From Nitrospirota bacterium (lineage in GTDB: Bacteria > Nitrospirota > Thermodesulfovibrionia > Thermodesulfovibrionales > UBA9159): DNA of 64,000 bases. Within the stretch, counting starts at the first letter, position 1. Each line of letters starts with the position of its first letter. Below are positions 1,672-63,031 of this stretch, piece by piece. The notes below the pieces were generated by a model. It searched no databases. It was not told the DNA's origin and saw only the letters and a program-made list of their open reading frames with translations. Position numbers and translations under genes: made by a program. The stretch covers positions 133 to 64,132 of the forward strand of contig JAMCQB010000063.1 in assembly GCA_023382175.1 (NCBI GenBank), in the 5' to 3' direction.

Positions 1672-4446
1672 TTAATCGCCCAGAACACTCTTCAGATACT
1701 TCCCCGTATAGGACTCGCTGACTTTTACGATCTCCTCGGGCGTTCCCTCGAAGATGATCCTGCCGCCCTGGTCGCCGCCCTCGGGTCCGAGATCAACAAT
1801 CCAGTCCGAGGCTGCGATGACGTCAAGGTTATGCTCTATCACCACAACACTATTGCCCGCGTCCACCAGCCTTCGAAGCACATCGATGAGCAGTTTCACG
1901 TCATTGAAATGGAGGCCGACGGTGGGCTCGTCAAGGATATACAGGAATCCTTTACCCCCCCATCCCCCCCTTGCCAAGGGGGGGTGTGAGGGGGGTAGTT
2001 CAGAACATATCTTGAGCCTCTGGGCTTCACCTCCTGACAGGGTGGTGGCGGGCTGCCCCAGCTTGAGGTACCCCAGACCCACCTCTTTCATGAGGGAAAG
2101 CCTGCTGAATACTGCCGGCACATCAGAAAAGACCTCCAGGGCCTCGTCAACGGTCATGTCCAGGACATCGACGATATTCTTGCCCCTATAGATGACCTTC
2201 AGGGCCTCGGGTCTGTATCTCCTGCCGCTGCACTCTTCGCACTTGATAAAAATGTCTTCGAAAAAATACATCTCCATCTTCTGGTACCCCTCTCCCCTGC
2301 ACGTCTCGCATCTCCCTCCCGGCACATTAAAGGAGAAGAACCCCGGGCCGTAACCGTTGGCCTTTGCCTCTATCTGCTCAGAAAAGAGTTTCCTTATCTG
2401 GTCGAATATCTTCAGATACGTCACAGGGTTTGAACGGGGAGACCTGCCTATGGGGGTCTGGTCAATGATCTTCAGTCCCTTTACAAACTCCTTGCCCTGG
2501 AGGGACCGGTAGGGCAGGGGGGTATCCTCCTGAAGGCCGAAACTCTTTGCCAGCGCATGGCAAAGGGTCTCGACAACGAGGCTGCTCTTGCCGGAGCCCG
2601 AGACGCCGGTTACTGCGGTCAACGTCCTCAGAGGAATTGTCAGGTCAACTTCCTTGAGGTTATTTCCCCTCGCACCATAGAGGATGAGTTCCTTCCGCTC
2701 TCTTTTCAGCGGATGCCTGGCATCGCGGCTGAAGGTTATCCTTTCGATGCCTTTCACATACCGCGCGGTTAACGTGTTCGCATTCAGGAATTTTTCCCTG
2801 GGGCCTGAAAAGACGATTTCACCGCCTTTATGGCCGCCGCCGGGACCGAGTTCCACGATCCAGTCCGCAGCCTGTATGATTCCTTTGTCGTGCTCCACTA
2901 CCACTATGGTATTGCCCATTCCGGAGAGTTCAGCCATTATCTTTGCCACCCGTTCCGTGTCCCGTGCATGGAGTCCCACTGTGGGCTCATCCAGGACATA
3001 GAGGGTGCCCGTGAGGTAAGATGCAAGCTGGTTCGAGAGGTTCACGCGCTGATATTCCCCGCCCGAGAGGGTCTTCCCCTGCCTGCTGAGGGTGAGATAG
3101 TCGAGACCGACCCGCTGGAGGAAGGAGAGTTTAAGGGTGATCTGCCGAAGGATCTCTTTTGCCATATCCCTCTGGAACGGTGAAAGGTCAATGTCCCGGA
3201 AGAACCCGGCCAGGTTCACTAGCGGAAGATCGGTAAGCCCTGCGATGTCCAAATGGGAGATCTTGTAGGAGAGCGCCTCTCTCTGGAGCCGCTTGCCGTT
3301 GCATGTGGGACAGACGGAACTTTTCCTGTATCTGCTGAGGAAGACCCTGACATGCAGCTTGTATCTCTTGCTCTCCAGTTCCTCGAAGAAATCGTCGATG
3401 CCGTAGAAATTCGGATCACCCTTGAATATCTTCTCCTTTTCTTCTTCGGAAAATTCCAGGAACGGTTTTTTCAGATCGATCCCCGACTTCTTCGAGCCGG
3501 CCAGGAACTGCCGTTTCCACCATTTTGCAGCAGGTTTTTCCCATGGCTCTATGGCCCCTTCAGACAGGGAGAGGAGTTTATCCGGGAATATGAGGTCCTC
3601 GTCATAGACCAGAATGTTGCCGAACCCCTTGCATTTCTGGCATGCGCCCACCGGATGGTTGAAGGAGAAGAGAAGGGGTGACGGTTCAGGAAGCTCTATC
3701 CCGCACTCATCGCAGGCATTTGAAGCGGTGAATTTCAACACTGTTTTCCGGTTCGACCCGTTATCCACCAGCAGCACCTTTAGCCTCTCATTTCCCTCCC
3801 TCCATGCCATCTCAAGAGAGTCGGAGAGACGGGGGTCGTCCCTTATCACGAGCCTGTCCAGAACTACATCCAGGGGGGAGACCACACCGAACTCCGTGCC
3901 CTCATCAATGTCCACCACCTCATCGTTCACCAGAAAGCGGCGGTATCCCCGTTTCTTCAGCTCTTCAAGGGACTCTCCGGTTTCGAAGAGGATAAGGGCC
4001 TTTCTTCCCTCATACTCTTCTGTCAACAACCGGACGATCTGGGAGGTATCCCATTTTCTGATCTCTTTGCCGCACCGGGGACAGTAGGGCGTCGAGACCT
4101 TTGAATAGAGAAGCCTGAGATAGTCGTATATCTCGGTGAGAGTCCCCACTGTGGAACGGGAACCGCGCACCGGGTTTTTCTGTTCCAGGGCCACGGCGGG
4201 GCGTATATTGTGGATGGCATCCACGTCGGGTCTGTCCAGTTTTTCGAGGAACAGCCTTGCATAGGTAGACATGGATTCGATGAACCTCCACTGGCCTTCC
4301 GCAAATATGGTATCGAAGGCAAGGGATGATTTTCCTGACCCCGACACGCCGGTGACCGCAATGAAGGTATTATGGGGCAGCTTCAGAGTGATGTTTTTGA
4401 GGTTGTTCTGCCGCGCCCCTTCGATTATCAATTCCCGGATTGACAT
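1672..4446 (-). CDS. uvrA: excinuclease ABC subunit A (UvrA family, somewhat divergent)
   Basis: 924 aa with two ABC modules: Walker A GVSGSGKSSLAFDT and GVSGSGKSSLV, signatures LSGGEYQR and LSGGEAQR, Walker B LYVLDEPTVGLH and LYILDEPTVGLH. Several CxxC zinc modules are present. The motif AEGQWRFIESMSTYARLF deviates from canonical UvrA. Confidence 0.85.
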   Translation of the reverse strand: MSIRELIIEGARQNNLKNITLKLPHNTFIAVTGVSGSGKSSLAFDTIFAEGQWRFIESMSTYARLFLEKLDRPDVDAIHNIRPAVALEQKNPVRGSRSTVGTLTEIYDYLRLLYSKVSTPYCPRCGKEIRKWDTSQIVRLLTEEYEGRKALILFETGESLEELKKRGYRRFLVNDEVVDIDEGTEFGVVSPLDVVLDRLVIRDDPRLSDSLEMAWREGNERLKVLLVDNGSNRKTVLKFTASNACDECGIELPEPSPLLFSFNHPVGACQKCKGFGNILVYDEDLIFPDKLLSLSEGAIEPWEKPAAKWWKRQFLAGSKKSGIDLKKPFLEFSEEEKEKIFKGDPNFYGIDDFFEELESKRYKLHVRVFLSRYRKSSVCPTCNGKRLQREALSYKISHLDIAGLTDLPLVNLAGFFRDIDLSPFQRDMAKEILRQITLKLSFLQRVGLDYLTLSRQGKTLSGGEYQRVNLSNQLASYLTGTLYVLDEPTVGLHARDTERVAKIMAELSGMGNTIVVVEHDKGIIQAADWIVELGPGGGHKGGEIVFSGPREKFLNANTLTARYVKGIERITFSRDARHPLKRERKELILYGARGNNLKEVDLTIPLRTLTAVTGVSGSGKSSLVVETLCHALAKSFGLQEDTPLPYRSLQGKEFVKGLKIIDQTPIGRSPRSNPVTYLKIFDQIRKLFSEQIEAKANGYGPGFFSFNVPGGRCETCRGEGYQKMEMYFFEDIFIKCEECSGRRYRPEALKVIYRGKNIVDVLDMTVDEALEVFSDVPAVFSRLSLMKEVGLGYLKLGQPATTLSGGEAQRLKICSELPPSHPPLARGGWGGKGFLYILDEPTVGLHFNDVKLLIDVLRRLVDAGNSVVVIEHNLDVIAASDWIVDLGPEGGDQGGRIIFEGTPEEIVKVSESYTGKYLKSVLGD
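1953..1997. repeat. GC-rich nested palindromic element, copy A (inside the uvrA CDS, in frame)
   Basis: TAC7-AT-C7TTG-C-CAAG7-TGTGA-G6TA, 45 bp. It is translated within UvrA as PPSHPPLARGGWGG, between the second LSGGE signature and Walker B. Confidence 0.75.
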
Positions 4447-5838: not shown

Positions 5839-6126
5839 ATGCCGTTAGCACAAAAAGTAAAGCCGAAGCATCCGTATATCGTCTCACTAAAATCTCACTG
5901 CGGCGGAAGTCCGATTATTGCCGGAACGAAGTTTCCTGTGCGGTCGGTTGTCTTTTACGTGTTGAAGCAGGGGATGACGCCTGAGGAGCTTGTAAAGGAG
6001 TTCACACACCTTACCCTTGCACAGGTCTATGACGCCATTTCCTATTACTATGAGAATCGGGCAGAGATTGACAAGGAGTTATCCCTCACGGAACAACAAC
6101 TAAAGGTCAAGGGACAGGCACGCTAA
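5839..6126 (+). CDS. DUF433 domain protein (putative antitoxin-like partner)
   Basis: 95 aa. The pattern GGSPIIAGTKFPVRSVVFYVLKQGMTPEELVKEFTHLTLAQVYDAISYYYENRAEID is typical of DUF433. There is a strong AAGGAGG RBS. The stop overlaps the next start (TAATG). Confidence 0.75.
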   Translation: MPLAQKVKPKHPYIVSLKSHCGGSPIIAGTKFPVRSVVFYVLKQGMTPEELVKEFTHLTLAQVYDAISYYYENRAEIDKELSLTEQQLKVKGQAR

Positions 6127-6479
6127 TGTCCGAAATTTCTCTATATCTTGATGAAGACGTAAGGGTCCTACTGGCGGAAGTGTTGCGCAGCAGGGGATAT
6201 CACGCCACTCATGTCCTCGACGTGAAAAGAACGGGCAGGAGCGATGCTGAACAGCTTGCCCATGCCGCAAAAAACGGGATGGCTATATTGACCCATAATA
6301 TCAGGGACTATATTGTCCTCAATAAGGACTACCAAGTTGCTGAAAAAAACCATTTCGGCATTATCATTTCCGAGCAGCTTCCTTTCAATGAGCTTTTAAG
6401 ACGAACGCTGAAATGTCTCTCTGCTAATTCCAAAGAATCATTGAAGAATAATTTGATCTGGTTGCAGGATTATAGGTAA
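6126..6479 (+). CDS. DUF5615 (PIN-like/Mut7-C-like) protein, putative toxin partner of DUF433
   Basis: 117 aa, MSEISLYLDEDVRVLLAEVLRSRGYHATHV... with the acidic LDED start typical of DUF5615. It is translationally coupled to the DUF433 gene. Confidence 0.7.
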   Translation: MSEISLYLDEDVRVLLAEVLRSRGYHATHVLDVKRTGRSDAEQLAHAAKNGMAILTHNIRDYIVLNKDYQVAEKNHFGIIISEQLPFNELLRRTLKCLSANSKESLKNNLIWLQDYR

Positions 6480-6609: not shown

Positions 6610-7785
6610 GTGCTCAAAACCATCAGTGATAAAGCGCTCTCAGGGCAAAGGCTTACCCGTGAAGATGCAATCGAACTGTTCCATTCCGACGACCTATTCA
6701 CCATCGGCAGGCTTGCTGCCCATGTAGCAGAGAAGAAGAATGGGAAGAAAGCCTTTTTCGTTGTGAACCGGCACATCAACCCCACCAACATCTGCGTAAA
6801 CCGGTGCAAGTTCTGCGCCTTCAGCCGGTCAAAAGGGGAGGATGGAGCTTTTGAATTAACGATCGAGGAAATCATCAATAAGCTAAAGGACGAAACGGAG
6901 AATCGGAGAATCGGAGAAATGGAGCGACAAGGAAACAGCAACACTACTTCACCGATTCACCCAATCACCGATTCACCCAATCACCGATTCAGGGAGGTGC
7001 ACATTGTAGGAGGGCTCCATCCTGACTGGTCCTTTGAGCGCTACTGTGCGATGCTCCTTGAAATTAAGAAAACGTTTCCCTCCATTGCCATAAAGGCGTT
7101 TACTGCAGTGGAGATAGACTATTTCTCAAGGATAAGCGGGCTGGCGGTGAGAGAAGTTCTTGAGAGATTGAAAAAAAGCGGCCTTCAGGCGATGCCCGGA
7201 GGAGGAGCCGAGATATTTGCGGAAAGGGTGAGGACGAAACTCTGCCCTGAAAAGATATCAGGGGAACGGTGGCTTGAGATTCATAGAACAGCCCACCTCT
7301 GCGGAATACCGACCAATGCGACCATGCTTTACGGCCACCTGGAATCCTATGAAGACCGGGTTGACCATCTCATGAGGCTTCGTGGGCTGCAGGATCTCAC
7401 CGGAGGATTCCAGGCATTCATCCCCCTGGCATACCACCCGAGGAACACCGACATCGGCGGCTTTTACACCTCCGGCATTGATGATCTGAAGACCATTGCC
7501 ATCAGCAGGCTTTTTCTGGGTAACATTCCCCACATAAAGGCGTACTGGATCATGCTGGGGGAGAAGATCGCCCAGGTGTCACTGCTTTTCGGAGCAGACG
7601 ATCTGGACGGGACGATTGTGGAGGAGAAGATTACCCATTCCGCCGGCGCAATGACCAGTGAGGGCCTGACGAGGAAAGAACTGGTGACCCTCATAAAAAA
7701 GGCAGGGAAGGTTCCTGTGGAGAGGGACGCCTTTTATAACGCTGTCCGATTAAGAGCGAGAAAGAGAAATTGTCATTGCGAGTGA
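6610..7785 (+). CDS. mqnE: radical SAM menaquinone (futalosine pathway) enzyme, MqnE/MqnC family; aminofutalosine synthase most likely
   Basis: GTG start. The CxxxCxxC cluster motif is NICVNRCKFCAF. Family blocks PGGGAEIF, NATMLYGH, GGFQAFIPL, IKAYW and FGADDLDGT are present. The family call is firm; MqnE versus MqnC is not resolvable by eye. The gene carries an in-frame repeat insert (6895..6990), and its last codons run into a REP element. Confidence 0.8.
   Translation: MLKTISDKALSGQRLTREDAIELFHSDDLFTIGRLAAHVAEKKNGKKAFFVVNRHINPTNICVNRCKFCAFSRSKGEDGAFELTIEEIINKLKDETENRRIGEMERQGNSNTTSPIHPITDSPNHRFREVHIVGGLHPDWSFERYCAMLLEIKKTFPSIAIKAFTAVEIDYFSRISGLAVREVLERLKKSGLQAMPGGGAEIFAERVRTKLCPEKISGERWLEIHRTAHLCGIPTNATMLYGHLESYEDRVDHLMRLRGLQDLTGGFQAFIPLAYHPRNTDIGGFYTSGIDDLKTIAISRLFLGNIPHIKAYWIMLGEKIAQVSLLFGADDLDGTIVEEKITHSAGAMTSEGLTRKELVTLIKKAGKVPVERDAFYNAVRLRARKRNCHCE
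6895..6990. repeat. tandem-unit inverted repeat inserted in frame in mqnE
   Basis: Left arm GGAGAATC GGAGAATC GGAGAAAT GGAG, a 23-nt spacer, then right arm TTCACCGATTCACCCAATCACCGATTCACCCAATCACCGATTC (GAATCGG / CCGATTC complementarity). It encodes TENRRIGEMERQGNSNTTSPIHPITDSPNHRF between EEIINKLKDE and REVHIVGG. Confidence 0.75.
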
Positions 7786-7845
7786 AGCGAAGCAATCTCG
7801 CCTTTGTGCATGAGATTGCCGCGGTCGAAACGACCTCGCAGTGAC
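7772..7845. repeat. REP-like palindromic element (gtcattgcgag family)
   Basis: GTCATTGCGAGtgaagcgaaGCAATCTCgcctttgtgcatGAGATTGCcgcggtcgaaacgaCCTCGCAGTGAC. It overlaps the last 4 codons and the stop of mqnE. The same modules occur inside the two MITE copies. Confidence 0.7.
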
Positions 7846-7867
7846 AGATTGACAAAGTGTGAGGGGT

Positions 7868-19476: not shown

Positions 19477-19615
19477 GGGGAAAAAATGGAAATGGATCGA
19501 GGGGGAGAATCAGTCTGGCAGGAAGGCCGCCGGGGTCGGCCTCCCTTGTCGCCCGGTTCTTTTCTCGGAGAGATACTCCTGGAACGGCAGAGCGTGAGCT
19601 TTTAAGAGCAAAAGA

Positions 19616-19676
19616 ACAAGGCCAAGGTTGAGAATCCTGTCAGTCTTAACCTTAGCCTTGACCTCAATCCTTAACC
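19616..19676. repeat. tandem-unit hairpin, AAGG/CCTT type
   Basis: ACAAGGCCAAGGTTGAG ... CTTAACCTTAGCCTTGACCTCAATCCTTAACC. It resembles the element at 25663..25723. Confidence 0.5.
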
Positions 19677-19735
19677 TGATTTGTGAGATCCCGCCCTCTA
19701 TTGCACTTTCAATGTCGTATGGTATTTAATATTCT

Positions 19736-22327
19736 ATGCCCGAGTTGACACCGCTGATGAAGCAGTATTTCAGCATCAAGGAGAAGCATGGAGATGCCAT
19801 CCTCATGTTCCGCCTTGGCGACTTTTATGAGATGTTCGGCGAAGACGCAAAAGTTGCCTCAAAGATCCTCCAGATCGCTCTCACGACCAGGGACAAGGCA
19901 AAAGAAGACCCCATCCCCATGTGCGGCATACCGTATTTTGCCGCTGAATCATACATAGCAAAACTCATCAAGGCGGGGCATAGGGTCGCCGTGTGCGAAC
20001 AGATGGGGGATGCGAAGGAGGCCAAGGGCATTGTTCAGAGGGATGTGGTGAAGGTGATTACTCCGGGGACATACACGCCGGAAAATCCGAAGGAGAATAA
20101 TTACCTCTTCAGTTTCTTCCCGGACGGGAAACAATACGGGATCGCCCTTGCGGATATCTCCACAGGCGAGTTCATGGTCTATGAAACTGAGCAGCCCGTA
20201 GAGGACGAGCTCAGCAGGTTCGAGCCCACGGAGCTCCTTTTCCCTGAAAGTCTAAAGGACAACATCCATTATTCCGAGATCATGAAGGGTTATTACGCCA
20301 CCGCGGCCGAGGACTGGACCTTTCATTATTCCGAGGCCTACCGGATTCTCCTGAGACACTTCGCGGTATCCTCCCTGGAGGGCTATGGATGTGAGGGAAG
20401 GACTGCCGCCATATCAGCAGCGGGAGCGCTCATCGCTTATATCGAGAACACGCAGAAAGAGGCCGTTCAATTCAAAAAGATCACCCCTCTCATCCAGAGC
20501 GCGTATATGTTGCTGGACGCCGCGACGCAGCGGAACCTCGAACTTATACGCAATCTGAAGGGAGGAGCTGACGGGACCCTTCTTGCTGTGCTCGACGAGA
20601 CACTCACCCCCATGGGTGGCCGGCGCCTCAGGAACGCTCTCCTCAGGCCGCTCATCGATGTCACCGGGATACGGAAACGCCTTGATGCGGTTGAGTCCCT
20701 GGCGGATGATTACGAACTCATCGAGACACTGCGCAGCAATTTCCGGAGGGTTCAGGACCTGGAAAGGCTTGCTTCAAGAGTAAACGGAGGATCAGCCACT
20801 CCCAGGGATCTCATCGCCATAAAAAATTCCCTTGCATCCCTTCCCGCCGTAAGGAAAGCGGCCTTATCATCGCCGGATGATTATCTCAGGTCATTGGGTG
20901 AAGATATTCCCGACCTGGGCGCGGTCAGGGAACTGATCGACTCCTCGATCATGGACAATCCTCCCCTCGGTATCAGGGAAGGAGGCATCCTCAAGACCGG
21001 ATACAGCAGGGAGGTGGACGAGCTCAGAAAGATCTCGGTAAGCGGCAAGGATTTTATTGCCGACCTTGAGGCAAGGGAGAAGAGGAAGGCAGGGATCTCG
21101 TCTCTCAAGGTGGGGTATAACAGGATATTCGGCTATTACATCGAAGTGACGAAGGCAAATCTTGATCTTGTGCCGGATTACTATATCAGGAAACAGACTC
21201 TTGTGAACGGAGAGAGGTTTATCACCCCGGAGCTCAAGGAGTATGAGGCAAAGGTCATAGGTTCCGAAGAACAGCTCAAGAATCTGGAATACAGTTTATT
21301 CCAGGAGCTCCTTGAGAAAATACGTTCAGAGAGCAGCCGTCTCATTTCCTGCGGCCATGTCATTGCGCTCCTGGATTTTCTCACTTCCCTTGCCGTGGTG
21401 GCGAGGAGGCATAATTACATCAAACCCGTGATTGATGACGGCAGCGCTGTCATCGAGATTATTGAGGGCAGGCATGCCGTGCTCGAACGGCTTCTCCCGG
21501 AGCCGTTCATCCCCAACAACACTTACATTGACAATGAAAGTGACCGGCTTCTGATTCTCACCGGGCCGAACATGGCAGGGAAGTCCACCTACATGAGACA
21601 GACCGCCCTCATCGTCCTTATGGCCCAGATCGGCAGCTTTGTGCCTGCGACGGAAGCGAGGATCGGTGTCGTCGACAGGATATTCACAAGGATCGGCGCC
21701 TCGGACTTTATCACCAAGGGACAGAGCACCTTTATGGTCGAGATGATTGAGACGGCGAACATCCTGAATAACGCCTCGGAACGCAGTCTCATTATCCTGG
21801 ACGAGATCGGCAGGGGGACGAGCACCTTTGACGGCATCAGCATTGCCTGGGCTGTTGCCGAGCACATCGCAAAGGCAATAAAGGCGAGGACGCTTTTTGC
21901 CACCCATTACAATGAGCTTACCGAACTGAGTCTTACCCTCGACGGAGTAAAAAACTACAATGTCTCGGTCAAGGAATGGGGGGACGAAATCATCTTTCTG
22001 AGGAAGATCGCCCCCGGACCGGCCGACAGAAGCTACGGGATTCAGGTGGGACGCCTTGCCGGCCTTCCCGAAGAGGTGGTCGGGCGGGCAAAGGAAGTCC
22101 TCATGAACTTTGAGGACGAACTGGCCGGTTCGGGGAAAACACGGTCCATGCTCAGGGATTTCTCGACCCAGGGCCAGATGGATCTTTTCCTCACGGGATT
22201 GGATCCGTTGCTGCTGGAGCTCATTCGCCTGGACCTGTCAAAGATGACGTCCAGGACAGCGCTGGCAAAACTCAGGGAGCTCAAGAACAGGGCAGAATCA
22301 CAGGTCCTGTCAAATCGCAAGCAGTGA
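19736..22327 (+). CDS. mutS: DNA mismatch repair protein MutS
   Basis: 863 aa. N-terminal MKQYFSIKEKHGDAILMFRLGDFYEMF, Walker A GPNMAGKSTYMRQ, and DEIGRGTSTFDG. Confidence 0.95.
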   Translation: MPELTPLMKQYFSIKEKHGDAILMFRLGDFYEMFGEDAKVASKILQIALTTRDKAKEDPIPMCGIPYFAAESYIAKLIKAGHRVAVCEQMGDAKEAKGIVQRDVVKVITPGTYTPENPKENNYLFSFFPDGKQYGIALADISTGEFMVYETEQPVEDELSRFEPTELLFPESLKDNIHYSEIMKGYYATAAEDWTFHYSEAYRILLRHFAVSSLEGYGCEGRTAAISAAGALIAYIENTQKEAVQFKKITPLIQSAYMLLDAATQRNLELIRNLKGGADGTLLAVLDETLTPMGGRRLRNALLRPLIDVTGIRKRLDAVESLADDYELIETLRSNFRRVQDLERLASRVNGGSATPRDLIAIKNSLASLPAVRKAALSSPDDYLRSLGEDIPDLGAVRELIDSSIMDNPPLGIREGGILKTGYSREVDELRKISVSGKDFIADLEAREKRKAGISSLKVGYNRIFGYYIEVTKANLDLVPDYYIRKQTLVNGERFITPELKEYEAKVIGSEEQLKNLEYSLFQELLEKIRSESSRLISCGHVIALLDFLTSLAVVARRHNYIKPVIDDGSAVIEIIEGRHAVLERLLPEPFIPNNTYIDNESDRLLILTGPNMAGKSTYMRQTALIVLMAQIGSFVPATEARIGVVDRIFTRIGASDFITKGQSTFMVEMIETANILNNASERSLIILDEIGRGTSTFDGISIAWAVAEHIAKAIKARTLFATHYNELTELSLTLDGVKNYNVSVKEWGDEIIFLRKIAPGPADRSYGIQVGRLAGLPEEVVGRAKEVLMNFEDELAGSGKTRSMLRDFSTQGQMDLFLTGLDPLLLELIRLDLSKMTSRTALAKLRELKNRAESQVLSNRKQ

Positions 22328-25662: not shown

Positions 25663-27328
<1,666 letters not shown>

Positions 27329-32953: not shown

Positions 32954-35656
32954 TTAATCCAGCACCCTTCTCACCTTTCTTAAAAGCTCTTTTGGTGAGA
33001 CAGGCTTCAGGATAAAATCCAATCCCTCATCGAGTATCCCCTTTTTATGGATGAGGTTCGCTGTATAGCCGCTTAGAAACAACACCTTTATGCGGGGATT
33101 GATTTTTTTGATTTCTTCATAAACCTCTTTGCCGTTCTTCTTCGGCATTATGACATCAAGGAGTAAAAGCTGAATATCCTCTTTATTGTTCATGAACTTT
33201 TTTATCGCATCCTCCCCGTCCTCCGCCGCTATTACCTTATATCCGAATCTCTCGAGCACATCCCTTGTTAATTTTCTGACTGCCTGATCATCCTCTGCTA
33301 CAAGCACTGTCTCTGTCCCTCCTCCCGTGTAGACAGCCGGCGCAGCACTCACTGCCTCCCCGGCCTCTGATTTAATCAAGGGCAGGTATATCTTAAATGT
33401 CGTGCCTTTCCCAGGTTCACTATAGACATTGATATAGCCGTCATGCTGTTTTACTATCCCGTAGACCATCGCAAGCCCAAGGCCTGTGCCCCTTCCCATC
33501 TCTTTGGTTGTGAAGAAGGGTTCAAATATCCTTTTCCTCGTCTCTTCATCCATACCAATGCCTGAATCTGTAATAGATATTAATGCGTATATTCCCGGCT
33601 CCCCATAGCCATGCATTTTCACATATTCCTCATCCATCTCTGTAATCCCCGTCTCTATGATTAATTCTCCACCATTTGGCATGGCATCCCTCGCATTGGT
33701 TGCAAGGTTCATCAATACCTGCTCTATCTGGCCCCTGTCTACTATTACTGTTAAATCCCCTACCCCCCTTTCAATTCCCCCCTTGCCAAGGGGGGACACA
33801 GAGGGGTCAAAGAGGGGCAAGGAGGGATTTAGTATTGTCTTTAATTCTATATCCTCGCCTATGATCCTCCTTAAAAATTTTCCGACGCTTCTTAATATTT
33901 CATTCAGATTTTCAGATTTTGGACTGATTATCTGTTTTCTGCTGAAGGCGAGCAGACTTTTTGTTAGATGGGCTGCCCTTTCCCCTGCACTGAGTATCTC
34001 TTTTAGATAGGCCCTATTAGGGTCGTCTCCCTTCATATCCATCTCTATGAGGTTCCCGAATCCTATTATTGCATTGAGGATGTTATTAAAGTCATGGGCA
34101 ATGCCGCCAGCGAGTATGCCAATCGCCTCCAACTTCTGGGCATGCCTCAATTGGTCTTCGAGATTCTTGCGCTCTGTGATGTCGCGAGTGATGGTCACGA
34201 AGCCTATGTGCTCCCCTTTCTCGTTTTTCAGTGAGGTAAGCGTCATTTCTGCCGGAAACCGCCTGCCATCCTTCGCAACCCTAAGGGTTTCAGCCGTTTT
34301 GACGAGTCCCTCGAAGGTCGCTTTCTTGAACCTCTCACGGCAGGCATCCTGAGCCTCGTGGGGAACGACCATAGACCATGGCTTTCCGATAACCTCCTTT
34401 GCTTGGTAGCCGAATATCATCTCTGCGCCACGGTTCCACGAGACGATGTTAGTATTCAGGTCCAGACCTACTATCGCATCGGCGGCATGCTCTGTTATGT
34501 TTGCGAGGAATGCCCGCTCCTCCTGCGACTCTGCAAGCTGCGAAGCCATTCTGTTAAATGACGAGGCAAGGTCGCCGATTTCGTCCTTTGATTCAACAGG
34601 GGCGCGGACAGAAAAATCCCCTCCAGCAAGTCCTTGCGTGGCCTTTGAAAGGGCAACCACAGGACGGGAGATTCCATGGGCGATGAGATAGGCTAAGATA
34701 GATGCAAGCAGTGCAATTGCAACGCCCAGCGCAATTACGCGCTTCCTGAGGGACTCAACAGGCGCGAAGGCCTCCCTCGTTTCGATCTCAGTGAGCAGAG
34801 TCCAGCCCCTGCCCGGGATGCACATGGAGGCGCCTATCACCTCCCTGCCGAGATAATTCCTGTAAATTCCGGAGGTTTCTCTTCCGGCGGCGCACTCAAG
34901 CACAGGCAGGGTCTCTACACGCTGCTTCATAAGCTCACTGCTGAATCGTGAAGGGGTAATCAGCAGCTTCTCCTTATTCACCAGGTAGATGTCGAGGGTT
35001 TCCCTCCTGCCCAGCGTGCCGCTTATTGCACCCTTTTCAATCTGGTACTCTCCAGAGAGCATTTTTCTCAGCTCGTCATGGTAGTAAAAATTAATGATCA
35101 CGCCAAGAGGATTGCCGGTCTTTTTATCGGTCAGCGGTGCGGCAGCAGCAATGTATGGCCTCTTTCCCTCTGTGGGGCGGGGAGGTATGTACATATCGCT
35201 TATGTAAACGCCTTTTCCCCCCTGCAGGAAATACTCGTCCTCCGATTCATCAGCGCCTATCTCGCCCTCCTCGGTTGCGGCAATCACCCTTCCTTTCATG
35301 TCCGTGACAAGAATCAGGTAGATACCCATGTCGTGGTGCATCTTGTTGTGCTTCAGGTACATGCTCAGCGCCTTTTGCAGCCCGGTATAGCGCGGGCCTT
35401 TCGGGTCTAACTTCTGCATTGCTTCAGCGCTATTGCGGATGAAGCCGTCAGAGGAAAGCTCCATCGCCCTGTCCTTCGCCATCTCGAAAAAGTGGTAGAG
35501 GACCCACTCTTTAGCTTCGGCTACGAGGGTTAAATCTTCCAATGCCTGCCTTTGCAGCGCTGCCTTAGCGGAGCTGTAGCTCAGGTAGCCGATGACGGCG
35601 ACGGGAATCAGAGCCGTCAGAAGAAATGCAAGGACGAGTTTTGGTTTAAGCTTCAT
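32954..35656 (-). CDS. hybrid sensor histidine kinase HK2 (TM, Cache-like periplasmic domain, HAMP, PAS, HisKA, HATPase, REC)
   Basis: 900 aa. The C-terminal ~500 aa are closely paralogous to HK1 (e.g. [37 protein letters not shown]). The N-terminal sensor differs from HK1. It contains a 21-codon palindromic insert. Confidence 0.9.
33753..33830. repeat. GC-rich nested palindromic element, copy B (inside the HK2 CDS, in frame)
   Basis: AAATCCC-ctaccccccTTTCAATTCCCCCCTTG-C-CAAGGGGGG-acacagaggggtcaaagaggggcaagga-GGGATTT. It encodes ..[23 protein letters not shown].., which is absent from HK1. Confidence 0.8.
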
Positions 35657-36700: not shown

Positions 36701-37133
36701 CTTGCCACAGAGGACACAGAGATCACCGAGATATTAGTGACGGATAGCTTGACGGAAAGTATTATAGCGGCATCCATTGAGGTTCATAGGGTCTTGGGAC
36801 CGAGCCTTTTGGAATCAATCTATGAAGAGGCTCTTTGTTACGAGTTATTTCTTAGAGGCATTCCGTTTGAACGTCAAAAGGAGGTTGACGTTCTTTATAA
36901 AGACAAAGTTATCAAAGGACAGAGACTTGATTTGGTGGTGAATGACGAGGTTGTAGTTGAGATAAAATCTGTGCGTAAATTAGAGGATATCTTTGTTGCT
37001 CAGGTATTATCCTATCTTAAGAGTACTGGCCTGAAACGAGCCCTGCTCATTAATTTTGGAGAAAGCAGACTTATTGATGGTCTGAAAAGAGTATCGCTTT
37101 AACTCAGTGAACTCTGTGGGCTCTGTGGCAAAG
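36701..37133 (+). mobile_element. GxxExxY gene cassette bracketed by ~30-bp CACAGAG-type inverted repeats, inserted between pdxJ and acpS
   Basis: Left arm CTTGCCACAGAGGACACAGAGATCACCGAG. The reverse complement of the right arm is CTTTGCCACAGAGCCCACAGAGTTCACTGAG. The arms start 10 nt after the pdxJ stop and end 15 nt before the acpS start. Confidence 0.55.
36737..37102 (+). CDS. GxxExxY protein (PDDEXK_3 nuclease-fold family)
   Basis: 121 aa, ..LGPSLLESIYEEALCYELFLRGIPFERQKEVDVLYKD...RLDLVVNDEVVVEIKSV..., the family signature. GTG start. Confidence 0.85.
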   Translation: MTDSLTESIIAASIEVHRVLGPSLLESIYEEALCYELFLRGIPFERQKEVDVLYKDKVIKGQRLDLVVNDEVVVEIKSVRKLEDIFVAQVLSYLKSTGLKRALLINFGESRLIDGLKRVSL

Positions 37134-40542: not shown

Positions 40543-40651
40543 CTGCACACCTCCCCCTAAAAGACGGCTATCATTTTAACAGAGAAATCTTTTTATTTTC
40601 CAGTCTTTTGTGAAACTCAGAAAATCTTGTTGAAAAAGCAGGAGATAATCC

Positions 40652-40800
40652 AGCAACTCACGGTGAAATCGCAAAGGCTTGAGATTGCTTCCCCCGTATC
40701 AAGTACGGGGTCGCAATGACAAAATAAAAGTCCGTAAAGTGTCATTGCGAGGAGTCTTTATTCCGAAGCAATCCAGTCACTATTCACCGTGAATTGCTGG
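40652..40800. mobile_element. 149-bp MITE, copy 1 (fabG / synthase intergenic region)
   Basis: Terminal inverted repeats (C)AGCAACTCACGGTGAA ... TTCACCGTGAATTGCT(G). It is flanked by direct repeats (GG)AGATAATCC and (GG)AGGTAATCC. It differs from copy 2 at about 9 positions by my count. Confidence 0.8.
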
Positions 40801-43250: not shown

Positions 43251-43337
43251 AAAATGCAAAAGGCAAAATGCACAGAGAAGAATTTCGGAATTGAGGGCTT
43301 CCGTAATTCCTAAATTGCATTTTTGCTTTTTGCATTT
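43251..43337. repeat. tandem-unit hairpin (AAATGCAAAAGG arms)
   Basis: AAAATGCAAAAGGCAAAATGCA ... TGCATTTTTGCTTTTTGCATTT, with an inner GGAATT..AATTCC hairpin. It lies between icd and the CNNM gene and ends 14 nt before that gene's ATG. Confidence 0.7.
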
Positions 43338-45852: not shown

Positions 45853-45954
45853 AAACCACAGAGATCACAGAGCACACAGAGAAAGACACGAAGTCTTCGA
45901 GACAAGAAATTTATTTTGTTCTTCCTCTGCGAACTCTGCGTCCTCAGTGGTAAG
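45853..45954. repeat. gene-less CACAGAG-type inverted repeat
   Basis: AAACCACAGAGATCACAGAGCACACAGAGAAAG, 35 nt, then CTTCCTCTGCGAACTCTGCGTCCTCAGTGGTAAG. The arm type is the same as in the GxxExxY cassette. Confidence 0.7.
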
Positions 45955-46389: not shown

Positions 46390-46426
46390 GAGCATATCGG
46401 CCAAAAGTTTGTATAGAGTACACCCC

Positions 46427-46575
46427 AGCAATTCACGGTGAAATCGCAAAGGTTTGAGATTGCTTCCCCCGTATCAAGTACGGGGTCGCAATGACAAAAT
46501 AAAATTTCGTAAAGTGTCATTGCGAGGAGTCTTTATTTCGAAGCAATCCCATCAATATTCGCCGTGAATTGCTGC
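46427..46575. mobile_element. 149-bp MITE, copy 2 (ndk / clpC intergenic region)
   Basis: The TIRs match copy 1 (AGCAATTCACGGTGAA ... TTCGCCGTGAATTGCT). It is flanked by the perfect 10-bp direct repeat AGTACACCCC (46417..46426 and 46576..46585). Confidence 0.85.
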
Positions 46576-54232: not shown

Positions 54233-56275
54233 TCACAGAGAGGTGTTTCCTCGTGCTATAGAGTCAGTGGTTCCCCCTACGACTGTTCTGTCTTTGCCTT
54301 TTACTTTTGCCCCATAGAGCGCCCTGTCTGCGTTCTTGATCAGTGTTTTTGCGTCTTTTACCTCTGCAGTGAATGTTGCGATGCCGATGCTCACCGTTAT
54401 CTTCTCACGAGGGAAGTTCTTCCATCTGAACGGCATAAGCTCCGCGATGTTCTTCCTCACCCTTTCCGCCACGAGAAAGGCCTCATCCCTTTCGGTCCGG
54501 GGCATTATGATGGCAAACTCTTCACCACCGAACCTCGCCAGTATATCAATGGACCTGAGCGACTCCCTCGAGATATCTGCGATCGCCTTTAATACCTCAT
54601 CGCCGGCAACATGCCCCTCTGTATCATTAAACAACTTGAAATCATCGATGTCAAAGATCGCCAATGAGAACACGGAATCATAACGTATTGCACGCTGTAA
54701 TTCTTCGAAGAGACGGTCATCAAAATATCTCCTGTTGAAGATCCCTGTAAGAGAATCTGTGATGGAGAGGGTTCTCATCTGTTCCGATATGCTGTAGTAA
54801 TGGGCTCCCTTTATGGCTAGGGAGGCGTATGAGACAAAATAGCGAAGGAATTCCATGTCCGCCTGAGAGAAGACCTCGCCGCTCATCTTATCGGAAAGGT
54901 TGAGGACACCTATGGTTTCATCCCCTATTCTCAGCGGGATGCTCACAAAGGAGTTTGTTTTGTAATTGGGCCTCGTCTTTGTAAAGAGATTCTTCTCTAT
55001 ATCCGAGACCATCAAGGGTTTACTCTCTTGATAGACCTTCCCGGCAATCCCTTCACCGACCTTTACCCTGATATTTTTTGCGATCAATTTGTTTATCCCC
55101 CTCACCGCCTTTATGAAAAGCTCTGTCCCGTCCTCCTCCGGGAGCATGAGGGAGACCTTTTCCGCATCCAGCATTTTAGAGGAAACCTCCACAATGGATT
55201 CATAAAGCGTATCGGGGTCTTGAAATGTCGGGCTCAAATTCAAAGCGAGATTCATGGTGGCGAGACCGTTGATCCGGGTGCTGAACATCTTCCGGGAAAT
55301 AATGGTGTCCAGTAAAAAAGCCGCAAAGCTGCACATTCTGGATATTATATCGACATCCTCTTCTGAAAGCGGGGAATTAAAAACGCTGAGGAGACCAAAG
55401 GTCTCATCCCTTATTGAGAGGGGGAATATCTGAATTGATGTAATGTCTTCGGGGTAACCGAGCCGCAGCAGTTCAATGGCTTCCAGGCAGATAAAAGGCC
55501 TGCGGTTTTTAACGGCATCCGAGATAAGGAAATGATCGCTTCCTACAGGGACAAATTCCACCTGCTTCTTTAACCTCCCCGTGGTGAGCACCGGAGCGAA
55601 TCTCCCATCGGTTCGCGCCATGGCAGAGACGGTATCTCCGCCGAAGAGGAAAATGACTGCATCAGTAAGGAGATTATAGAGCTCTTTCTCACTGATGTCC
55701 TTCTCGACCTCGGAAAAGAGTTCCATGATGGTCATCGTTTTTCGATATCTTTCCCGATAGGTGCTTTTTTCATGACTGCTCTTAACACTCAGATTGAATA
55801 ACCGATGAATTTTTTCATATACCTCGGAGACTTTCTTAATATCCTCCGGGACTATCTTCTTTGTCCAGAGTCTCATATCCTCTCTGGAGAGCCCATAGTC
55901 GTGCCCTTTCGACGCGAAGTCTTCCGGGTCCTTCACCGATAGATAAAAAGCATTCCCCACCAGAACCAAACTCGCACTGCCGATCTGAGCCGGAATAAAA
56001 TAGTGGTACTGGTTCATGGGTCCCTTGAGTACTGTAGGACTTTTTCTGAGAACCGCCTTCTCTATGCCCCCTTCAAGATACCTCCTGTGCTCCTTTCGCC
56101 CTTTCTCCGACAAAGAGAACGCCTCTATTATCGGATCAGGAGAAAGGGAAGGGATGACCAACTGACCCGTCCGGTCATAAATCGTAAAATCAAGGTTCGT
56201 CAGACCGGCAATACAGTCTCTCAGTTCAATTACAGGCCCTATTTCCATCCGTTTAAAATTCATCGTCAACTTCAA
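54233..56275 (-). CDS. diguanylate cyclase with an N-terminal sensor region, GAF domains and GGDEF (GGEEF) with an RxxD I-site
   Basis: 680 aa. RSIDILARFGGEEFAII shows the I-site RSID 5 residues before GGEEF. The GAF-like block is GEGIAGKVYQESKPLMVSDI...IGVLNLSDK. The gene sits between livJ and livH on the same strand. Confidence 0.88.
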   Translation of the reverse strand: MKLTMNFKRMEIGPVIELRDCIAGLTNLDFTIYDRTGQLVIPSLSPDPIIEAFSLSEKGRKEHRRYLEGGIEKAVLRKSPTVLKGPMNQYHYFIPAQIGSASLVLVGNAFYLSVKDPEDFASKGHDYGLSREDMRLWTKKIVPEDIKKVSEVYEKIHRLFNLSVKSSHEKSTYRERYRKTMTIMELFSEVEKDISEKELYNLLTDAVIFLFGGDTVSAMARTDGRFAPVLTTGRLKKQVEFVPVGSDHFLISDAVKNRRPFICLEAIELLRLGYPEDITSIQIFPLSIRDETFGLLSVFNSPLSEEDVDIISRMCSFAAFLLDTIISRKMFSTRINGLATMNLALNLSPTFQDPDTLYESIVEVSSKMLDAEKVSLMLPEEDGTELFIKAVRGINKLIAKNIRVKVGEGIAGKVYQESKPLMVSDIEKNLFTKTRPNYKTNSFVSIPLRIGDETIGVLNLSDKMSGEVFSQADMEFLRYFVSYASLAIKGAHYYSISEQMRTLSITDSLTGIFNRRYFDDRLFEELQRAIRYDSVFSLAIFDIDDFKLFNDTEGHVAGDEVLKAIADISRESLRSIDILARFGGEEFAIIMPRTERDEAFLVAERVRKNIAELMPFRWKNFPREKITVSIGIATFTAEVKDAKTLIKNADRALYGAKVKGKDRTVVGGTTDSIARGNTSL

Positions 56276-62944: not shown

Positions 62945-62946
62945 AT

Positions 62947-63031
62947 AACACGTGACACGTGACACGTAACGCGTAACACGTGACAAACCGGAACGAATTC
63001 TTTATTACTTGTCACGGGTCACGCATCACGG
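62947..63031. repeat. tandem-unit hairpin (ACACGTG heptamer arms)
   Basis: ACACGTG ACACGTG ACACGTA ACGCGTA ACACGTG ACA, ~24 nt, then TGTCACGGGTCACGCATCACGG. It abuts the aroQ ATG. Confidence 0.75.

Follow-up and report, generated by a model that had tools for sequence, protein, structure and literature searches.

An in-frame tandem-repeat element in a predicted surface loop of the menaquinone enzyme MqnE, at a hot spot for repeats across Thermodesulfovibrionia

How does an enzyme of a core biosynthetic pathway come to carry, in frame within its coding sequence (CDS), a segment made of two arrays of short tandem DNA units, and does that segment do anything there? We address this question for the aminofutalosine synthase gene mqnE in a stretch of 64,000 nucleotides (nt; hereafter the window) from a Nitrospirota bacterium (Thermodesulfovibrionales; UBA9159; GCA_023382175.1, contig JAMCQB010000063.1, positions 133 to 64,132). 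Between EEIINKL and REVHIVGG, the product of this open reading frame (ORF 6610-7785) contains about 27 extra residues, with the peptide KDETENRRIGEMERQGNSNTTSPIHPITDSPNHRF. An earlier note on this DNA (the original prediction) had described the segment as an inserted hairpin repeat, and the letters at 6895-6990 are as it quoted them. We consider it probable that the insert is a repeat element, translated but most likely without a function, that lies in a permissive loop, at a codon position that is a hot spot for such elements across the class Thermodesulfovibrionia. The gene and the parts of its insert, all on the forward strand, are:

6610..7785, +: mqnE, aminofutalosine synthase (radical SAM), host of the insert; 391 amino acids (aa); TIGR03700, PF04055, PF19288
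6892..6924, +: left array, rich in purines, with three copies of GGAGAATC and a fourth, degenerate one; encodes TENRRIGEME
6925..6947, +: spacer of 23 nt, non-repetitive, forming the hairpin loop and un- or weakly paired in folds; encodes RQGNSNTT
6948..6991, +: right array, TCACCGATTCACCCAA x2.7 (5.5 copies of the 8-mer TCACCSAW); encodes SPIHPITDSPNHRF

The whole protein scores 509.2 bits against the TIGR03700 (MqnE) model, whose cut-off is 434.55, and the MqnC and CofH models score under their respective cut-offs; the CxxxCxxC cluster motif of radical SAM enzymes is seen as CVNRCKFC, and the sequence matches the MqnE crystal structure of Pedobacter heparinus (PDB 6XI9) at 1e-80. The TIGR03700 match comes in two stretches, leaving residues roughly 93-120, the insert, unmatched. 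Measured from CxxCAFSR to EVH, the segment is 55 aa long in the window protein and 26-29 aa in MqnE of Geobacterales, Brocadia, Scalinduaceae and other non-Nitrospirota (in genes where both anchors could be located), and about 6 residues of 6XI9 correspond to 33 in the window protein. Because the loop is short in the crystal structure and in MqnE of other phyla, with no equally long, alignable segment among them, the insertion of about 30 residues put forward in the original prediction stands. In an AlphaFold2 model built from 43 homologues, the predicted local distance difference test score (pLDDT) falls below 50 at residues 96-124, between a helix (85-92) and a strand (129-132), and the rest of the model superposes on MqnE 6XI9/6XIG at a template modelling (TM) score of 0.81-0.83. 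Modelling the barrel in this way places the insert in the predicted disordered surface loop from alpha1 to beta2. In radical-SAM barrels, the iron-sulfur cluster and the SAM site are on one face and the alpha-to-beta loops on the other.

The insert is identical in near-identical proteins of independent assemblies (two NCBI accessions, one Logan, one JGI) and is therefore no assembly artefact. We also ruled out an intein or intron, the segment being short, in frame and plain repeat without such a motif, and the target of a diversity-generating retroelement, as an informal comparison of the sequences indicates that whole units or elements vary, not adenine-specific substitutions. No Rfam family reaches its gathering score in the whole window, and at 6800-7100 there are chance-level matches only. 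If translated, the insert is expected to yield the tryptic peptides IGEMER and QGNSNTTSPIHPITDSPNHR.

Tandem Repeats Finder called the left array at 6892-6924 with period 8 (3.4-4.1 copies, 88-94% matches) and the right array at 6948-6991 with period 16 (2.7 copies, 100% matches, score 86) or, in an alternative call, period 8 (5.5 copies, 77% matches), and the period-8 signal of the loop DNA was equalled in none of 300 shuffles. Between the left unit TCGGAGAA and the complement of TTCACCGA, the right unit, 7 of 8 positions agree. The best ungapped complementarity score between the arms was equalled in none of 2000 plain shuffles and in 4 of 2000 that preserved a tandem 16-mer. The complementarity of the arms is real, partial but beyond chance. 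For the RNA of 6889-6993 the fold energy is -24.4 kcal/mol (z = -3.2; 2 of 200 shuffles are as good); the DNA of the slightly wider 6885-7000 reaches z = -1.5 only.

The reading frame bears on this partial pairing. Since tandem 8-mers run through all three frames, a left arm exactly complementary to TTCACC (GGTGAA) is excluded: an exact complement of the right arm in the left position gives an in-frame TGA in 20 of 20 registers tried. The real left arm deviates once per unit, reading GGAGAA, a deviation that removes the in-frame TGA, and because of it the MqnE hairpin is imperfect. Intergenic copies of the unit family elsewhere pair perfectly as GGGTGAAT / ATTCACCC (e.g. L085, L093, L107, L188). 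The stop-avoiding mismatch makes visible how the reading frame shapes the repeat.

The original prediction took the element as a feature of this genome; as an in-frame element it holds, but it is not peculiar to this genome, and the loop is a class-wide hot spot. Among 114 scorable MqnE homologues, all Nitrospirota-type as far as their sources are named, the segment measures at most 31 aa in 48, 32-36 aa in 26 and at least 37 aa in 40, and the reading frame is kept in all 114. The loop inserts comprise at least five unrelated sequence types, mostly tandem 7- or 8-mers:

TETRRxGDT...SPIHPFTDSPxHRF: this window, P0049, P0093 and P0114; right half alone in P0018, P0069 and P0106
GQGAxxKG...NSSxITHxSSLPF: MqnE loop of homologues
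PPxPPLxKGGxGG: MqnE loop of homologues
GHGSRVTGHG: MqnE loop of homologues
EQQSSRAAEQQ...SSLVTHHSSLSF: MqnE loop of homologues

In relatives with DNA available, the loops contain these units:

L002: GGTCACG x4, translated as GHGSRVTDHG
L004: GTCGGCA x4
L010 and L014: GAGTYAA opposed to TTAACTC
L016: GGCAAGR opposed to ATCGCCC
L083: GCAAAGR opposed to TCATCAC
L084: GGAGACAC x4 opposed to TTCACCSA x6
L082, a 'short' loop: AACTTCG x5

A period of 7 or 8 is significant (0-1 of 300 shuffles) in 13 Nitrospirota MqnE loops, with period 8 in the window and L084 and period 7 in 11 related loops, and the loops from other phyla have no 7-8-nt periodicity in the shuffle test. Copy numbers and unit variants of the arrays vary between relatives, and strong hairpins are predicted in L010 (z = -4.3) and L014 (z = -5.4). 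The codon position of the alpha1-beta2 loop is a hot spot for repeat elements across Thermodesulfovibrionia. What the elements share in general is a purine-rich array followed, after a spacer, by a pyrimidine-rich one; within CDS, their complementarity is not maintained.

The type of insert does not follow the gene around it. L083, a close relative with DUF433, DUF5615, mqnE, M48 peptidase and sulfatase genes in the same order as in the window, is 88% identical to it in the 5' flank, 93% in the 3' flank and 46% in the insert (chance level); for the distant L084 the corresponding values are 73%, 65% and 69%. In a neighbour-joining tree with the loop masked, the window protein stands beside proteins with other insert types or none, and the other carriers of its insert type are at the far end. 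By these sequence comparisons, insert type is discordant with both the MqnE tree and flank identity, which points to repeated acquisition or exchange, or to strong convergence, and against simple vertical descent. Discrete gains can be seen at two loci. L081 is L082 with a clean 66-nt GC-rich hairpin (-48 kcal/mol, z = -3.3) added within the heptamer array, with no target-site duplication at this, the sole clean filled/empty pair examined; and in valyl-tRNA synthetase (ValRS), a C-run/G-run hairpin in L170 is absent from the close homologue L153.

The unit family of the right arm also occurs well beyond MqnE. An exact metagenome scan for TCACCSAWTCACCSAWTCACC (TCACCSAW x2.6) returned at least 120 contigs from many sample kinds, in which the family also forms intergenic hairpins. 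The array lies within long ORFs in 12 contigs, and in-frame copies include two ValRS genes (..NSPIHRFTDSP..), one of which (L170) also has the C-run/G-run hairpin, as well as ORFs that by eye are CbiA-like and MoeA-like. At least two GGTGA motifs occur within 160 nt upstream of the array in 22 of 120 contigs, versus 8 of 460 background windows, and downstream in 2 of 120. Within 1.73 Mb examined there are about 41 pairs of opposed matching-unit arrays at 0-50 nt spacing, 20-30 nt being the commonest. Around TCACCSAW arrays, some intergenic regions (L192, L198, L127, L177, L186, L190, L194) are mosaics of different short-unit arrays in series, with units including TTCGGAC, CACAGAGGA, TCACCGAT, ATTACGA and GGACCTG, so that a small shared unit set recurs in unrelated contigs, including as non-complementary array pairs.

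What history would produce this picture? We infer the neutrality of the insert, its translation and its route of arrival, and propose the following course. The element would belong to a widespread type of DNA made of tandem 7-9-nt units, often in two opposed arrays able to fold as a hairpin. The alpha1-to-beta2 loop, which can presumably lengthen without harm to the barrel fold of MqnE, would have acquired short-unit arrays early in Thermodesulfovibrionia and then repeatedly gained, swapped and lost array elements, a process that would leave close relatives with unrelated inserts and distant ones with similar inserts. The only strong constraints on an element in frame would be a length divisible by three and the lack of a stop codon. 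Elements may arrive by being copied in from elsewhere, and would then grow and be homogenised by replication slippage. On this account, one loop of a core biosynthetic enzyme has long collected repeat DNA throughout a bacterial class, and MqnE illustrates repeat DNA living inside an essential gene.

Several points weigh against this account. Neutrality is read solely from the variability of the loop and its predicted disorder. The two MqnE 8-mer units are not repeated elsewhere within the 64-kb window; the search for further arrays of these units that the original prediction proposed found none there, and in the window this 8-mer class is in MqnE only. There is no empty/filled pair for the window's own insert, and L081/L082 lacks a target-site duplication. 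The right arm common to distant lineages could be convergence from a few slippage-prone units, not transfer. The arrays of L016, L083, L084 and L005 are not complementary beyond chance and their folds are no better than shuffles, and since several relatives' array pairs lack above-chance complementarity, the 'hairpin' may be incidental to the two-array layout.

Among other explanations, a purely local origin survives best, although we judge it unlikely: a repeat seed in the loop would have been expanded by slippage and the opposed arm produced by local inverted duplication or template switching, with nothing imported and similar units elsewhere convergent. It would fit the observations that tandem heptamers make up the loop even where it is shortest in Thermodesulfovibrionia (AACTTCG x5 in L082), that array copy numbers and unit variants differ among relatives, that the right-arm peptide stands alone in several lineages (P0018, P0069, P0106), that L081/L082 lacks a target-site duplication and that the MqnE units are missing from the remainder of the window. 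It is harder to square with a near-identical right arm in distant MqnE lineages alongside unrelated inserts in the closest relatives, with the TCACCSAW family at many unrelated loci and in other proteins, and with the clean all-or-none gains in L081/L082 and in ValRS of L170/L153.

That the insert is a functional element, either an mRNA structure tuning mqnE translation or decay or a protein segment such as a His/Pro-rich linker or interaction site, seems to us distinctly improbable. Most Thermodesulfovibrionia keep some insert at this position, the RNA fold has z = -3.2, and the right-arm peptide SPIHPFTDSPxHRF is alike in distant lineages; yet that conserved-looking peptide is the obligatory translation of a unit also present in intergenic DNA, about 40% of homologues have a short loop only, close relatives have non-homologous inserts, in several relatives shuffled sequence folds just as well, and the segment is predicted to be disordered. 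Least credible of all is phase variation, in which gain or loss of one 8-nt unit would shift the frame and switch menaquinone synthesis off or on: as neither 7 nor 8 nt is divisible by three, a slip of one unit would cause a frameshift, and heptamer and tetramer repeats do act as such switches in some pathogens (background in PMC4679880), but here there are 3-5 copies only, copy number is identical in all independent assemblies, 114 of 114 scorable homologues are in frame, and mqnE belongs to a core biosynthetic pathway.

If the insert is a translated repeat element in a permissive loop, how does it compare with elements already described? The literature that we searched contains no description of such elements in Nitrospirota. 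The closest described analogue, by likeness of layout, is the Rickettsia palindromic elements (RPE), in-frame palindromic repeats in housekeeping genes (Ogata et al. 2000, as summarised in PMC3184786). The likeness is a palindromic repeat of about 100 bp, in frame in a housekeeping gene and translated as a tolerated extra surface segment; the MqnE insert has 100 nt, partly complementary arms, an in-frame position and a predicted disordered alpha1-beta2 loop. RPE form families whose copies, 100-150 bp long and near-identical, are confined to one genus, whereas in MqnE the arms are of tandem 7-9-nt units, the unit differs per site and one loop has been occupied many times, in a free-living Nitrospirota host and with a visible stop-avoidance signature.

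Tandem arrays of similar unit length are reportedly found in cyanobacteria, as the STRR heptamer arrays and long-unit simple repeats credited to Mazel et al. 1990 and Mrazek et al. 2007. The STRR1-3 units are CCCCAGT, TTGGTCA and CAACAGT, and the MqnE insert units GGAGAATC and TCACCSAW are not among them. Beggiatoaceae contain TAACTGA repeats (PMC4679880). The likeness of the MqnE repeats to both is that of lineage-abundant 7-nt-class tandem arrays, mostly intergenic, sometimes in or overlapping ORFs and limited by stop codons in the unit; the unit sequences differ, and opposed array pairs and an internal enzyme loop are not described for either. Elhai et al. 2008 (cited in PMC3116915) reportedly described small dispersed repeats (SDRs) in Nostoc, 21-27-nt conserved hairpin elements that insert into heptamer arrays and sometimes into genes. 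The L081/L082 hairpin, nested in a heptamer array, resembles SDRs so described; the MqnE element differs from such reportedly conserved, 21-27-nt repeats in being about 100 nt long and itself made of arrays.

REP and REPIN sequences with their RAYT transposases are short hairpin repeats abundant between genes (PMC3116915, PMC3733652), with a GTAG or CGTC tetranucleotide at the palindrome end (PMC3733652). Neither tetranucleotide is found at the arm ends of the MqnE element (6892-6991), which is likewise a short hairpin-forming repeat and differs in being intragenic, with tandem-unit arms and no GTAG/CGTC head. Compared with MITEs (miniature transposable elements that have terminal inverted repeats and a target-site duplication), the opposed MqnE arrays could serve as terminal repeats, and the L081/L082 gain is without a target-site duplication. 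The intervening sequences (IVS) of 23S rRNA have a long stem and, in the loop, an ORF for a four-helix bundle (TIGR02436 family). The likeness here is that arrays of GGGTGAWT / AWTCACCC, units of the same family as those in the right arm of MqnE, enclose TIGR02436 genes; the MqnE element differs in having no cargo and in lying in mRNA, where excision by RNase III would destroy the message.

This last comparison leads to small genes flanked by arrays, of which the window contains an example:

36706..37127, +: 9-mer arms CACAGAGNN (36706-36732 and 37103-37127) exactly flanking a GxxExxY / PD-(D/E)XK gene (36737-37102)

The gene matches PF13366 at 2e-38 and TIGR04256 at 3e-38, and a search of the window for the 9-mer arm pattern gave 8 matches against 0.47 expected. 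The same arms recur as a gene-less hairpin at 45857-45950, and by sequence the two look like loaded and empty forms of one cassette. GxxExxY genes in five further contexts (Geobacterales, Scalindua, Elusimicrobia, Thermodesulfobacteriota and Brocadia) are all bordered by CACAGAGNN or NNCTCTGTG arrays ending GCCACAGAG or CTCTGTGGC; in Brocadia the arrays are direct, not opposed, and a reverse-transcriptase gene precedes. The array-flanked loci are those of the window, L027 (199-661), L205/208, L210-212, L213/215 and L217/218 (gene 301-666). The GxxExxY proteins are 75-88% identical across phyla, a sequence similarity that points to horizontal spread. Genes of the four-helix-bundle family TIGR02436, to which Avd and the intervening-sequence protein of 23S rRNA are akin, are enclosed by opposed octamer arrays (GGGTGAWT / AWTCACCC) at four loci:

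L171:1592-2098
L173:2144-2811
L200:66-708
L125:about 150-640

These loci were picked for their TCACCSAW arrays, so the frequency of the association cannot be estimated from them. Array flanks around GxxExxY or TIGR02436 genes are not described in the literature that we searched. We tentatively suggest, as a possibility that we hold well short of even confidence, that opposed tandem 7-9-nt arrays might form the ends of small mobile cassettes, a class not yet described that spans phyla. Loaded forms would contain a GxxExxY PD-(D/E)XK nuclease gene (with CACAGAGNN) or an Avd/IVS-like four-helix-bundle gene (with GGGTGAWT), empty forms would be intergenic hairpins, and new copies would land preferentially in existing arrays, making the MqnE loop a self-reinforcing landing pad in an essential gene. 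The MqnE element, having no gene, would be at most the 'empty' form. A link between the arrays and the common but unexplained GxxExxY and four-helix-bundle genes offers a testable handle on what these genes do, and may explain how short-unit arrays spread between phyla.

The window contains further repeat elements. The original prediction likened the MqnE insert to intergenic hairpins elsewhere in the window, and the sites it named (placed here at 25665, 43251, 45857 and 62946) do share the architecture of opposed tandem-unit arms with folds that beat shuffles. Its description of the MqnE arms as partly complementary tandem 8-mers is borne out too, although the fold is weaker than those of the intergenic hairpins, which are mostly better folded than the MqnE element (z = -3.2):

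25665..25723: intergenic hairpin, tandem 6-mer arms (AAGGTA / CTTAAC type); RNA fold z = -6.2
19615..19677: intergenic hairpin, AAGGTT / AACCTT units, same type as 25665, upstream of ORF 19736-22327; z = -3.0
43251..43337: intergenic hairpin, tandem 7-mer arms (AAAATGC / GCATTTT); z = -4.9
45857..45950: intergenic 'empty' hairpin, 9-mer arms CACAGAGNN / NNCTCTGYG; z = -4.3
62946..63030: intergenic hairpin, 7-mer arms (ACACGTG / GTCACGG); z = -2.3
1953..1997, -: C-run/G-run hairpin in frame in uvrA (PPSHPPLARGGWGG); fold z = -4.0
33777..33826, -: hybrid histidine kinase with the C-run/G-run core in frame; exact 19-nt core at 33777-33795

The unit GGTCACG of the 62946-63030 hairpin also encodes GHGSRVTDHG in the MqnE loop of L002. 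Intrinsic terminators were ruled out for the intergenic hairpins, as no T-run was seen downstream by eye. The exact 19-mer CCCCCCTTGCCAAGGGGGG occurs twice in the window, both times in frame (uvrA and histidine kinase), and this C-run/G-run core is distinct from the MqnE 8-mers; two unrelated repeat classes are thus present in CDS, as the original prediction held, the C-run/G-run repeat being presumably the 'first' coding class to which it alluded. The core translates as PPxxPPLxxGGxGG-type peptides in the two unrelated proteins, and this peptide type is also seen in the MqnE loop of P0010, P0025, P0059 and P0107 and in ValRS of L170. For annotators, a rule suggests itself: low-complexity peptides such as SPIHPFTDSP, GHGSRVTGHG and PPLxKGGxGG in environmental bacteria would be translated repeat DNA, not domains.

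At mqnE itself, genes for DUF433 and DUF5615, as a pair a putative toxin-antitoxin module, adjoin upstream (window 5839-6479) and are in the same position in the closest relative (L083:1065-1735). At the other end, the last residues of the product (..NCHCE) and the stop codon lie inside a third palindrome, GTCATTGCGAG...CTCGCAGTGAC (7771-7846). Because MqnE of most homologues stops about 12 residues earlier, the C-terminal tail seems, on sequence grounds, to be read-through into this repeat. The motif GTCATTGCGAGG is common to this palindrome and to an element of about 150 bp that is present twice (window 40650-40800 and 46425-46575), its copies having about 90% column identity over the aligned stretch and, with 17-19-bp terminal inverted repeats (CCAGCAAYTCACGGTGAA ... 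TTCRCCGTGAATTGCTG), a MITE-like look. A 21-nt tandem repeat (2.6 copies, 75% matches) is found at window 55802-55858, in a GAF-GGDEF ORF on the reverse strand (54233-56275).

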